This document shows, piece by piece, positions 28,992 to 32,205 of a stretch of DNA of 64,000 bases. Positions within the stretch are counted from its first letter, which is position 1, and every line of letters starts with the position of its first letter. Made by a program: the position numbers and the translations under genes. The DNA is from Alphaproteobacteria bacterium (GTDB lineage Bacteria > Pseudomonadota > Alphaproteobacteria > CALKHQ01), in contig CBDDFZ010000001.1 in assembly GCA_965227515.1 (NCBI GenBank), positions 896,001 through 960,000 on the forward strand, written 5' to 3'. Under the pieces are notes generated by a model, which made no database searches, was not told the origin of the DNA, and worked only from the letters and a program-made list of their open reading frames with translations.

Positions 28992-30277
28992 CCGACACCC
29001 GCATCACTGCCGTCACCGGCCGCCGGGTGTGGGATTCGCGCGGGCGCCCGACCGTCGAGGCCGAGATCGCGCTGGCGAGCGGCGTCACCGGCCGGGCGAT
29101 CGCACCCGCCGGGGCCTCCACCGGGCGCCACGAGGCGGTCGACAAGCGCGACGGGGGCACGGCGTTCGGCGGGCTCGACGTCGCAGGCGCGCTGGACGCA
29201 CTTACCGTCGAACTGGCGCCGGCCCTGATCGGCCGGAATGCGGCGGACCAGGCCGGCATCGACAAGGTGCTGAGCGAGACCGATGGCACGCCTGATCTGG
29301 CCCGTTGCGGCGGCAACGCGGTGATCGCGTGCTCGATGGCCACCGCCCATGCCGCGGCCGCCGCCGCCGGGCTGCCGTTGTGGCGTTGGCTGGCCGCCAA
29401 CGCGCCGGTCACCGACATGCCGATCCCGGAGATCCAGGTCTTCGGCGGCGGCGCGCACGCCAGCCGGCGGGTTGACATGCAGGACTTTATGGTGGTCGCG
29501 GTCGGCGCCGCCCACATCGCCCAGGCATTCGACTGGACCGCCGAGGTCTATCGCGCTGCCGGCGGGCTGATGGCCGAGGCCGGCAAGCTCGCCGGGGTGG
29601 CCGACGAGGGCGGCTGGTGGCCGCAATTCGAGGGCAACGAGGACGCACTGGATTTCCTGGTCCGCGCCATCGAGCGCGCGGGCCTGCGTCCCGGCGAGGA
29701 TGTCGCCATCGCCCTCGACATCGCCGCCACCCAGTTGCTGGACGGCGAGCATTACCGGCTGGCGGCGGAGGATCGGCGCCTGGACGGCGACGAATGGCGC
29801 GAACTGCTGCTCGGCTGGTGCCGGCGCTACCCCATCGTGTCCATCGAGGACCCGTGCGCGGAGGACGACTTCGACGGCATGGCGGCGTTCGTGGCCCAGG
29901 TGCCGGCCGGCATCATCACGGTCGGCGACGACCATCTGGCGACCGCGCCGGAACGGATCGCCGATGCCGCCGGCGCGCGTTCCTGCACCGCGGCCCTGAT
30001 CAAGCCCAACCAGGCCGGCACGCTGACCCGCGCGCACCACGCCCTGAACGACGCCCGCGCCCATGGCTGGGCCACCATCGTGTCGGCCCGCTCCGGCGAG
30101 ACCGAGGATGTGACCGTGACCCATCTCGCCGTTGGCTGGGGCGCCGATCAGCTCAAGGTCGGCTCCTTCACCCGTTCCGAACGGATGGCGAAGTGGAACG
30201 AGTGCCTGCGCATCGACGAGGCCCTCGGTGGCGGCCTGCCGCTCCGGCGGCCCCGGGCGTGGGTTGGAGGATCGTAG
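28988..30277 (+). CDS. eno: Enolase-like protein (variant phosphopyruvate hydratase)
   Basis: 'DSRGRPTVE', 'GASTG', 'DEGG', 'SIEDP', 'VGDD', 'LIKPNQAG', 'SARSGETED'; ATGA overlap with the kinase. Confidence 0.8.
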   Translation: MTDTRITAVTGRRVWDSRGRPTVEAEIALASGVTGRAIAPAGASTGRHEAVDKRDGGTAFGGLDVAGALDALTVELAPALIGRNAADQAGIDKVLSETDGTPDLARCGGNAVIACSMATAHAAAAAAGLPLWRWLAANAPVTDMPIPEIQVFGGGAHASRRVDMQDFMVVAVGAAHIAQAFDWTAEVYRAAGGLMAEAGKLAGVADEGGWWPQFEGNEDALDFLVRAIERAGLRPGEDVAIALDIAATQLLDGEHYRLAAEDRRLDGDEWRELLLGWCRRYPIVSIEDPCAEDDFDGMAAFVAQVPAGIITVGDDHLATAPERIADAAGARSCTAALIKPNQAGTLTRAHHALNDARAHGWATIVSARSGETEDVTVTHLAVGWGADQLKVGSFTRSERMAKWNECLRIDEALGGGLPLRRPRAWVGGS

Positions 30278-30327
30278 CCCGGGTGAAACGAAGTGGAACC
30301 CGGGTTTCGCTGCGCTCCACCCAGGCT
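30274..30327. repeat. GTAG-type REP element interrupted by the IS110 element
   Basis: gtagcccgggtg...cacccaggct; the closing 'ac' lies at 31757-31758 beyond the IS. Confidence 0.75.
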
Positions 30328-30359
30328 TCTGTAACGGGCCATTGTTGGTCAATCCCTTT

Positions 30360-30530
30360 TTCGTCGTCCCGGCGCCTGGGTCATGCTTCTGTACGGGGTC
30401 GGCGCACGGCCGCCACCAAGATGGATATGCGAGGATCGGTCGGTCCAATCTACGGAAGCGTGCTCTCGTGCGAGGCGACATCCTGGATGGCGGCCTGACC
30501 TGATCCATCGTCCCGGCGCGGGACGGCGCT
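30360..30530 (-). ncRNA. Putative bridge RNA / seekRNA of the IS110 element
   Basis: Segments matching target (30482-30490, 30450-30454) and donor (30418-30424, 30386-30393) inside stem-flanked loops; RNA ends are estimated. Confidence 0.7.
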
Positions 30531-30600
30531 TGACGGGCCGGTGTCTGCGCCCGCCGAAGCTCGTGTGCTGGTTCTCCCTATGCGGCGGTCGTCTTTGCCA

Positions 30601-31644
30601 TTAGGCCGCTGCCATCGCCGGGCGCACCGGTCCGGCATGGTTGAACGCGGTGCCGTCAACCCACATCCGGTGCATGATCACGGCGAGCCGGCGCGCCAGC
30701 GCGACCTTCGCCTTCCTCATGCCCGCACGCCTGGCCAGCTTCATCGCCCAGCTCTTCAGCCAGCCGCCCTCGATCGGCCGGGTCAGAACCACGTGTGCCG
30801 CCTCATAGAGGGCCGAGCGCACATCGGCGTCCCCTACCTTCGATATCCGCCCCATCACCTCGCTCTCGCCCGACTGGCGCTTGGTCGGCGTCAGGCCGAA
30901 GTGCGCACCCACCAGGCGCGACGAGGCAAACCGCCCGGGGTCGTCCACTCCCGACAAGTAGGTCAGTCCGACAATGCTCCCCACGCCCGGCACCGTCATC
31001 AGCAGGCGAGCGCGATCGTCGGCCTGCGCCGCCGCCCGGACCTGCCGGTCCAGCGCCGTGAACGATAGCAACAGGCCATCGCGTGCCGACAGCAGCGCCC
31101 CCGCCACCGCCTCCAGTACCGGATGCCCCGCCACAAGCTCCGAAATACGTGTCGAAAAGCTGCGCCTGGTGGTGTGCCCTACCTTCAGCCCGAAGTTCCG
31201 CAGCTGACCACGAAGGTGCATCTCAAGATCGTGCAGCTTCGCGCGGAGCTGGTCGCGACCCTTCAAAAGGGCCCGCATCTCCTGGGCCGCCAAAGACTTG
31301 CAGTGAACCGGCCGAAACCAGCCCACACGCATCAGCTGAGCAATCCCGCGTGCGTCCGAGCGGTCCGACTTCACCGGCATCGTCGAAAGGGCCCGCGCAA
31401 CATGACGCGTCTCCAGCAACTCAACCGAAAGACCGCCCTGCGCGCACTCCCGCACAAGCCATTGCGACAACGGCCCCGCCTCAAGACCAATCCGCTCAAC
31501 CGAAATCCCCAAAGACCCAAACCACAACAACAAACCCGCCGGCGTGCTCGCAATACGAGCCTCGCAGACAATCCCGCCCGCGCCGTCAACAACGCATACC
31601 GATGACCATTCCAAAGAAACGTCAATCCCGGCATAGTAGTTCAT
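30601..31644 (-). CDS. IS110-family transposase (RNA-guided recombinase)
   Basis: RuvC-like D-E-D-D ('GIDVS', 'GLEAG', 'KSDRSDA'), 'TVPGVG', 'GLTP..RQSG..GRISK.G', 'VALARRL'. Confidence 0.95.
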   Translation of the reverse strand: MNYYAGIDVSLEWSSVCVVDGAGGIVCEARIASTPAGLLLWFGSLGISVERIGLEAGPLSQWLVRECAQGGLSVELLETRHVARALSTMPVKSDRSDARGIAQLMRVGWFRPVHCKSLAAQEMRALLKGRDQLRAKLHDLEMHLRGQLRNFGLKVGHTTRRSFSTRISELVAGHPVLEAVAGALLSARDGLLLSFTALDRQVRAAAQADDRARLLMTVPGVGSIVGLTYLSGVDDPGRFASSRLVGAHFGLTPTKRQSGESEVMGRISKVGDADVRSALYEAAHVVLTRPIEGGWLKSWAMKLARRAGMRKAKVALARRLAVIMHRMWVDGTAFNHAGPVRPAMAAA

Positions 31645-31773
31645 GGTCGTCTCTCCTCGATGTCTTGGAGCGGCAAACCCGACTCCGTGTATGACACCGA
31701 CATCTTGAGGGACGACCACTCATGCACGCCACCAAACAAGGGCCGTTAGCCCATCTACAACGTCCGGTGCGCC

Positions 31774-32205
31774 TCAACCCGCCGCGATGTACTGCTCCAG
31801 TGCGTCGCGTTCGTGCTGCAACTCGCCCAGGCGGTGCTTCACCACGTCGCCGATGCTGATTATGCCGACCATGCGGTCGTTGCGCATCACCGGCAGGTGG
31901 CGGATGCGGTGGTCGGTCATCAACTGCATCAGCTTGTCGAGCGTGTCGTCCGGCGTGCAGGTGATGACGTTCGCGGTCATGTAGTCCCTGACCGGCCCGT
32001 CCAGGCAGGTGGTGCCGTGGGTGGCCACCGCGTGCACGATGTCGCGCTCCGACAGGATGCCGTCGACCGCGCCCGCGCGGTCCGAGACGACAATGACCCC
32101 GATATGCTCGCGCTGGAGGGTCGCTGCCGCGTCGGCCATCTTGGAGCCCGGCGTGGCGTGAACGACCCTGTTGCCCTTGTCCTTCAGGATGGCTGCAACA
32201 TGCAT
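31774..32205 (-). CDS. CBS-domain protein
   Basis: 'GILSERD', 'IRHLPV', 'GIISIGDVVK'; GGAGG RBS. Confidence 0.9.
   Translation of the reverse strand: MHVAAILKDKGNRVVHATPGSKMADAAATLQREHIGVIVVSDRAGAVDGILSERDIVHAVATHGTTCLDGPVRDYMTANVITCTPDDTLDKLMQLMTDHRIRHLPVMRNDRMVGIISIGDVVKHRLGELQHERDALEQYIAAG

Follow-up and report, generated by a model that had tools for sequence, protein, structure and literature searches.

The stretch analysed here, 64,000 nucleotides of an alphaproteobacterial genome (contig CBDDFZ010000001.1, positions 896,001 to 960,000; hereafter the window), contains a gene for an enolase-type protein (open reading frame (ORF) 28994-30277, with the Pfam domains Enolase_N and Enolase_C), a pair of repetitive extragenic palindromic (REP) units, and an insertion sequence (IS) of 1,429 bp, counting one CT, that occupies positions 30328-31756 and is inserted between the GT and the AG of the GTAG tag of a REP hairpin. 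The element, whose parts are listed in Table 1, very probably belongs to the IS1111 type of the IS110 family, is active, and is guided by RNA into the GTAG tags of REPs. At the insertion site, gtagcccgggtg begins at 30274, the TAG at 30275-30277 is the stop codon of the enolase-type ORF, and convergent genes lie on both sides of the element and the REP pair (checked at the window locus only). The partner arm, cacccaggCT, terminates at 30327; once restored, it matches the left arm in inverted sense at 11/12 positions. A repeat search gives arms of 29 nt each (30276-30304 and 30299-30327) that are 79% complementary. This apparent palindrome consists of two inverted copies of a GTAG-tagged REP hairpin unit of about 31 nt, overlapping by 6 nt; on the minus strand, the first of them reads as a CACCCGGGCTAC target without interruption. 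An earlier note, made from the letters of the window, had given these motif coordinates and the arm match, which were confirmed on re-reading, and had deduced the ends of the element without homology; they proved to be the actual ends in all 21 insertions described below.

Table 1. Features of the element and of its insertion site, in window positions.
Feature	Position	Strand	Remarks
REP unit 1	30274..30304	+	GTAG tag, 7-bp stem, ~12-nt loop; genome position C1 926273 +
REP unit 2, inverted partner	30299..30327	-	body and AG of GTAG tag; left CT/AG core copy 30326-30327
Insertion sequence body	30328..31754	-	1,427 bp (1,429 with one core dinucleotide); first-to-last-base match in 20/20 full copies
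Subterminal inverted repeat, distal arm	30332..30349	.	4 nt inside end; pair of 18 nt, 78% complementary
Candidate -35 box, TTGACC	30347..30352	-	would be completed as a promoter only when the ends join in a circle; putative function
Predicted bridge/seek RNA domain	30365..30525	-	161 nt; comparative fold and covariation
RNA outer stem	30525-30512 / 30379-30365	-	RNAalifold
Donor guide g4, UACAGAAG	30386..30393	-	identical to transposase-distal end plus core
RNA donor hairpin	30416-30409 / 30403-30395	-	RNAalifold; g3 and g4 in multi-loop
Donor guide g3, UCCAUCUU	30418..30425	-	complementary to transposase-proximal end across core
RNA stem closing target arm	30506-30499 / 30439-30433	-	RNAalifold; g1 and g2 on either side of small variable hairpin
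Target guide g2, CGUAG	30450..30454	-	identical to other flank plus core (cgt|AG), so pairs with opposite strand across core
Target guide g1, CCAUCC(A/G)GG	30482..30490	-	pairs with REP stem strand CCYGGRTGG adjoining core; position 30484 polymorphic
Transposase gene	30601..31644	-	347 aa from ATG; DEDD/RuvC-like N-terminal domain and Transposase_20 C-terminal domain; ORF open in 20/20 copies
5′-untranslated region hairpin	31644..31718	-	arms 31718-31707 / 31655-31644, 12 nt, 92%; would cover ribosome-binding region upstream of transposase start codon; putative function
Subterminal inverted repeat, proximal arm	31731..31748	.	6 nt inside end; same 18-nt, 78% pair
Right core copy	31755..31758	-	CT 31755-31756 and 'ac' 31757-31758 (the GT of the split GTAG tag)

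Copies of the element and their REP target

With 30328-31756 as query, the genome (two contigs of 4.07 and 1.45 Mb, 66.6% G+C) yielded 20 full copies over query bases 1-1429 at 91-100% identity (97-100% but for one at 91%) and one internally deleted copy (C1:998355-999179, in two BLAST pieces) that has the same REP flanks and keeps both ends; all 22 BLAST pieces found are part of these 21 insertions. The deleted copy has lost the 3′ half of its transposase gene along with two of the guide segments described below (g1 and g2). Every insertion lies at CAYCCRGG-CT / CT-AC, always in one orientation, and the base after AC is G in 15/20 full copies. The earlier note had proposed a genome search for further copies, and the boundaries are the same in the 20 full copies and in the deleted one; since ends and flanks are the same everywhere, the differing boundaries that would speak against its proposal do not occur.

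Empty sites are abundant and read as that note had predicted, the uninterrupted 12-mer CAYCCRGGCTAC occurring 114 times elsewhere in the genome and the uninterrupted 13-mer CCAYCCRGGCTAC 83 times, versus about 2 expected from base composition. Empty and occupied sites together number 134, distributed among the variants CACCCGGG (62), CACCCAGG (41), CATCCGGG (27), and CATCCAGG (4). They belong to a REP with the consensus unit GTAGCCYGGRTG...AAYCCGGG, present as 114 strict units (179 with the looser GTAGCCYGG), each with its tag (GTAG), a stem of 7 bp (CCYGGRT / AYCCRGG) and a ~12-nt loop; read by eye, both stem arms vary in step in the units listed. An inverted partner is found 54-99 nt away at 18/20 occupied sites, and within 140 nt at 80/114 empty units. 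The genome also encodes a Y1 transposase resembling the REP-associated tyrosine transposases (RAYTs), with the domain PF01797, in a 191-aa ORF (C1:1603806-1604381) located between inverted units, at 1603785 and 1604429, of the very GTAG REP that the IS targets, an arrangement of a kind described for REP/RAYT systems (Di Nocera et al., 2013, PMC3733652). The target is therefore, as the note had supposed, a GTAG-tagged REP: an imperfect palindrome in the 20-40-bp range of such repeats, with GTAG at one end, high copy number, and an associated RAYT. The segment C1:1603785-1604460, with the RAYT-like ORF and the GTAG REP units that bracket it, amounts to a REPtron; a second PF01797 hit in the genome (C1:2017088-2017375) has a weaker context, with no such REP nearby.

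The identity of the flanking bases at all copies, and collapsed assemblies in which 6-10 of those bases stay with the element, are also what would be expected if the flanks belonged to the mobile unit, or if copies had spread by recombination or duplication of REP-flanked segments and not by insertion into existing REPs. We regard this as hardly credible, given the 114 CAYCCRGGCTAC sites with nothing between CT and AC, the sequence beyond the REP unit, which differs at every copy, as do REP variants and spacers, and the fall of identity exactly at the core, to which may be added that the donor guides introduced below match the ends as joined at one core. Contigs from four public runs labelled as other organisms carry the element at ~98% identity: collapsed contigs end at 31758 (X2, X4, X7) and begin at 30318-30321 (X4, X7), and REP contigs continue past 30327 with AC.... 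At the level of assemblies, this fits identical ends and an identical reading of empty sites elsewhere. The 21 insertions, all in REP targets, bear out the suggestion of the earlier note that the element could spread through the REP network of this genome; the added idea that genes would be spared was checked at the window locus, where the element lies between convergent genes.

Family placement

The transposase has the domain pair PF01548 (DEDD_Tnp_IS110, E = 1.6e-12) and PF02371 (Transposase_20, E = 2.3e-20), and scores 238 bits against a cut-off of 140 with the NCBIfam model NF033542, 'IS110 family RNA-guided transposase'. Its C-terminal domain aligns to the transposases of IS621 (8wt6, E = 2.9e-10) and ISCro4 (9t56, E ~3e-10) in PDB, with the SG motif aligned. 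In an N-terminal alignment that is itself non-significant (0.7 bits), GID, LEA and SDRSDA stand opposite GID, IEA and TDTVDA of IS621, which we take to hold the catalytic residues of that enzyme. The domain pair, site-specific insertion without terminal inverted repeats, and the short core at both junctions place the element in the IS110 family, as the earlier note had it. Within that family, IS1111 elements are described as coding for a transposase 330-350 aa long that bears the motif GL-P----S(t)G, with the longer of their two non-coding regions downstream of its gene (Siddiquee et al., 2024, PMC11187229), and as having subterminal inverted repeats of ~7-17 bp (PMC11187229; Durrant et al., 2024, PMC11208160). 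In the window element, 273 nt lie downstream of the transposase gene (30328-30600) versus 112 nt upstream (31645-31756), and the protein carries FGLTPTKRQSG, a motif of the GL-P----S(t)G type (SG in GLTPxxxxSG). Layout, subterminal inverted repeats, protein length and motif make the element IS1111-type.

A predicted guide RNA in the 3′ non-coding region

When the 3′ region, transcribed in the sense of the transposase gene, was scanned against the target and the joined ends, four guide segments emerged: two, g1 and g2, that meet at the insertion point and complement both target strands, and two, g3 and g4, that match both element ends. In the window copy g1 is CCAUCCAGG, read from 30490 to 30482, and this segment, which the earlier note had put forward as the guide, is the one that covaries with the target both within the genome and across related elements; a second allele, with G, was also found. 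In 5′ to 3′ order, the long match to the top strand comes before the short one to the bottom strand, as reported for IS1111 seekRNAs and opposite to IS621 (PMC11187229, PMC11208160).

For comparison, 29 loci with transposases 43-68% identical were gathered, of which 19 were inspected and 9 used, together with 2 plasmid loci, the remaining 10 being partial matches. Left out were L038 (distal end missing), L045 (contig ends), L047 (unrelated downstream sequence), L057 (end uncertain), the near-duplicates of used rows L042, L052 and L060, and L055, L058 and L059 (frame interrupted). The plasmid relatives, from Acidiphilium multivorum and Methylocystis iwaonis, were the best among plasmid matches (~68% DNA identity). 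The resulting alignment of 3′ regions has 14 rows, 3 of them variants of the element itself and 11 from relatives at 45-68% protein identity, and from it RNAalifold predicts a three-way arrangement (stems in Table 1). The position of the donor guides in a multi-loop has been noted for many IS1111 members (Durrant et al., PMC11208160). Across the 25 consensus pairs, 89.9% of alignment cells are paired, versus 36-50% with slid partners, compensatory changes occur at 16/25, and the covariation score was reached by 0/500 shuffles. The 161-nt domain folds with z = -3.0, and single-sequence folds of the 3′ region give z = -1.5 (273 nt) and z = -1.7 (166 nt). G-U pairs in the conserved helices indicate the transposase-sense strand as the RNA. 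Judged from these features, the 3′ non-coding region encodes a predicted guide RNA carrying target and donor guides. It has no Rfam family match at E <= 1 in a search of 30200-31850. A second target-like segment, ACCCAGGC (30381-30374), was considered as a guide and rejected, being invariant among copies and part of the conserved outer stem, whose 3′ strand it forms.

IS621 and ISPpu9 also target REPs, ISPpu9 has AG at both ends, and the 3′ small RNA of some IS110-group elements is dispensable for transposition (PMC12288879), which would allow an IS110-group element with its guide RNA in the 5′ end and a 3′ region that is a passenger, like ssr9 of ISPpu9. Such an arrangement is very improbable for the window element. 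Its 5′ region is just 112 nt long and, by eye, largely hairpin over the ribosome-binding site; transcripts of that region, and of the plus strand, gave just weak, wobble-rich or unanchored matches to the target, the best in the 5′ region being wobble-rich 6-9-mers unanchored at the core. The 3′ region contains all four guides, which covary with the flanks and the element ends; the element has subterminal inverted repeats; and the genome has no free-standing 3′ module, every BLAST piece described above being part of one of the 21 insertions.

Covariation of guides with targets and element ends

Within the genome, position 30484 in g1 is A in 7 copies and G in 13. The A-guide copies occupy CACCCAGG (6) and CATCCAGG (1), that is, 7/7 are in ...CCAGG, and the G-guide copies occupy CATCCGGG (9), CACCCGGG (2), and CACCCAGG (2), that is, 11 in ...CCGGG and 2 in ...CCAGG, where an rG·dT wobble would form. 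The table of guide base against target base (7/0 and 2/11) yields a Fisher p = 4.6e-4. Measured against the sites available, the presence of all A-guide copies in A-type sites has p = 4.8e-4, and the perfect-match CATCCGGG takes 9/13 G-guide copies though it makes up just 27/134 sites (p = 1.8e-4). All deviations from a perfect guide match are rG·dT or rU·dG wobbles, and rA·dC is needed by no copy. Wobble tolerance at the interface of guide and target has been reported for ISPpu10 and IS621 (preprint 10.64898/2026.03.19.712850). Three sequence-identical G-guide copies occupy CACCCAGG, CACCCGGG and CACCCGGG, and the use of wobbles is therefore original and not the outcome of later guide mutation. 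The U of g1 stands opposite T in 10 and C in 11 of the 21 insertions, both of which can be paired (U-A or U·G) in one sense only, so that the RNA must be the transposase-sense strand. In the window itself, the two arms of the palindrome differ exactly at the base facing 30484, and the A-guide element sits in the arm that matches its guide. The earlier note had surmised that the guide may fit other REP copies better, and perfect-match sites do exist (3 empty CCATCCAGGCTAC and 1 occupied).

Across relatives, the 14 aligned 3′ regions consist of conserved blocks with variable segments exactly at g1 and g2. The segment homologous to g1 pairs over 8-11 nt with the element's own flank, abutting or including the core, in 11/14 rows; 72 non-cognate g1 pairings have a mean run of 3.1, with one at 8.5. 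The match of g2 to its flank extends over 7-8 nt in L048 and L049 and over 4-6 nt, two being the invariant core, in most others, while g3 tracks the proximal end and g4 the distal end (ACAGA / AGAGA / AGCGA), the latter in 14/14 rows. In L040 (CAWBBW010000032.1), g1 and g2 both misfit the element's own flanks; g2 of L067 (AACUAG; Methylocystis iwaonis plasmid NZ_CP143317.1) matches the left flank of L040, and the right flank is common to the two. This cross-match could reflect mobilisation by the RNA of another element, or a guide that changed later.

The target is a conserved hairpin and 18/20 occupied sites are in REP pairs, as might be expected if the transposase alone read the sequence or shape of the REP hairpin and the complementarity of the non-coding region were coincidental or regulatory; a target stem-loop is reported to add specificity for ISPpu10 (preprint 10.64898/2026.03.19.712850), and a structural contribution is plausible as an extra layer. 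As the whole explanation this is improbable: a one-base guide polymorphism predicts the REP variant occupied, relatives with unrelated targets alter exactly the g1 segment to match, and the mismatches tolerated are those of RNA-DNA wobbles only. To these may be added that the window copy has the transposase of one lineage and the RNA region of the other, and that its site fits the RNA region, though this is a single case that later gene conversion could explain.

Proposed cycle of excision and insertion

RNA-guided insertion may be pictured as follows, the first three steps by analogy with ISEc11, ISPa11 and IS621 and the later ones from sequence. The element would excise as a circle, with its ends abutting at one CT/AG core, and the junction would place the conserved TTGACC 17 nt from a -10-like hexamer, a promoter from which both the transposase gene and the 3′ non-coding region would be transcribed; the latter would give a structured RNA of ~160 nt that the DEDD transposase would bind. 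In this RNA, g1 would pair with one REP stem strand adjoining the core and g2 with the other strand across it, while g3 and g4, the donor guides, would each pair across the core with one element end. Recombination at the core would then set the element, in its one orientation, between GT and AG of the REP tag, and the two coexisting guide alleles, one base different, each sit in the REP variants with which they can pair.

No sigma-70-like promoter was found in the integrated element. TTGAC lies 22-23 nt from the distal end in 12/14 aligned elements, and in the window element the hexamer 17 nt from TTGACC consists, by eye, of the core flanked by two terminal bases from each end, the last two of one and the first two of the other. 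The predicted junction promoter agrees with those described for the family (PMC11187229). The hairpin in the 5′-untranslated region (Table 1) would likely serve translational silencing of read-through transcripts; the same hairpin arms were seen by eye in relatives. The genome contains two sets of three identical copies, which, together with transposase ORFs that are open throughout the full copies, indicates that the element moved recently.

Several observations weigh against the reading of an RNA-guided, mobile element. The excision circle and its junction, as well as the expression, the ends and the transposase binding of the guide RNA, are parts of it that we infer, and the junction promoter fits just 8/12 consensus positions (by eye). 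The RNA structure derives from the same alignment on which its pairs were counted, which makes the comparison with slid partners the fairer control. The single-sequence minimum-free-energy fold pairs g1 with g3 instead of leaving both open; as a conserved feature this pairing was rejected because the long-range helix it requires (alignment columns 55-62 with 155-160) is no better conserved than in shuffles, 150/500 of which reached the observed paired fraction. In the window element g1 has no pairing with the core dinucleotide (AU where CU would pair), unlike IS621, and three of the 14 rows (L040, L048, L067) misfit their own flank when contiguous runs are measured. In the Fisher test, insertions of related copies count as independent events, a reasonable but unproven assumption. 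Finally, no empty allele of the window locus was found: an exact search with the 24-nt right flank gave no match in metagenome and genome contig collections; the nearest of the genomes compared are of another genus, with an enolase 78% identical, a different downstream gene and no REP; and none of the contigs of the four public runs bridges the window insertion site.

Two guide alleles and a mosaic copy

The copy in the window is a mosaic. It agrees at every base with the A-guide lineage from 30328 to ~30650, a part that takes in the RNA region and the final codons, and from ~30685 to 31756, comprising the transposase and the 5′ end, it is one base off the G-guide lineage (comparison copies C1:558687-560106 and C1:3843241-3844669), the lineages otherwise differing at ~60 positions. 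The pattern suggests that copies exchanged the RNA module by recombination or gene conversion. More tentatively, and with less confidence than doubt, one may propose that a single A-to-G guide change split the element into a specialist and a generalist lineage: the A guide would use only ...CCAGG (45/134 sites), and the G guide, by G·T wobble, would pair with all four variants and be the more successful (13 versus 7 copies), with the window copy a recombinant of an A-lineage RNA module and a G-lineage transposase. If true, a natural bridge-RNA system would still be undergoing retargeting and the shuffling of its modules. Moreover, the GTAG tag is both the site that RAYT enzymes cut and the site split at each insertion, and the proposal, if true, would imply a running conflict of two selfish elements, the IS on one side and REP/RAYT on the other.

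Relation to known elements

RNA-guided REP targeting by IS110/IS1111 elements is already established for IS621, ISPa11 and ISPpu9/10 (Tobes and Pareja, 2006, as cited elsewhere), the mechanism having first been described in 2024, so that the window element is a further example and leaves the understanding of the mechanism unchanged. Compared by published description, it resembles ISPa11, an IS1111 family member of Pseudomonas aeruginosa, in its RNA downstream of the transposase gene (a seekRNA in ISPa11), its REP target, and a top-strand match 5′ of the bottom-strand match (PMC11187229), and differs in host class and REP sequence; RNA and circle, predicted here, were shown experimentally there.

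With IS621, an IS110-group element of E. coli, it shares a DEDD recombinase and four guides on both target and donor strands around a 2-nt core. The natural target of IS621 is ATCAGGC-CT-AC (PMC11208160), which on our own reading of the other strand would correspond to an E. coli REP end cut at the same GTAG position. The two differ in that the RNA of IS621 is in the 5′ end and that of the window element in the 3′ end, with guide order and insertion orientation relative to GTAG reversed; the donor guides lie in an internal loop in IS621 and in a multi-loop here, and the window element has longer subterminal inverted repeats and a g1 without core pairing. The earlier note had named IS621 among the IS110 members that target REPs; in its subgroup the window element is not IS621-like, being IS1111-type with a 3′ guide RNA. 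ISPpu9 and ISPpu10, of the IS110 group in Pseudomonas putida, are likewise multi-copy, inserted at one REP position, mostly in REP pairs, with AG at both ends and wobbles tolerated (PMC12288879; 10.64898/2026.03.19.712850). Their RNAs are 5′, and the 3′ Ssr9 of ISPpu9 is, in the published account, dispensable and separately mobile, whereas the 3′ RNA of the window element holds the guides and has no orphan copies. The nearest sequences found are uncharacterised 'IS110 family transposase' elements from alphaproteobacterial genomes and metagenome-assembled genomes, with 43-68% protein identity, the same RNA architecture, and different guides and targets; all are too distant to count as the same insertion sequence.

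What the element adds is a well-resolved natural example from an under-sampled group, IS1111-type, in a GC-rich, two-replicon genome, its nearest element relatives being alphaproteobacterial. It is notable chiefly for its two guide alleles and for a clean natural data set of 21 insertions, ~114 empty sites, and relatives with other guides, from which all four guides and a three-way-junction RNA fold could be mapped without experiment and the tolerated mismatches, wobbles only, read out within one genome. This is useful for annotating such elements, in which the ends and the RNA usually escape notice, and offers candidate material for engineering IS1111-type recombinases.

The same genome also has four copies of another IS110-family element, ~1.2 kb long (C1:85250, C1:2520711, C1:3321434, and C2:1183213), which are not in GTAG REPs and have different ends, as well as two more single IS110-family genes at C1:1350459 and C1:1792779. 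At the window locus, the last residues of the enolase-type gene (region 30270-30277) are unlike those of its relatives in L024 and L025, and the REP may therefore have reshaped the 3′ end of the gene.

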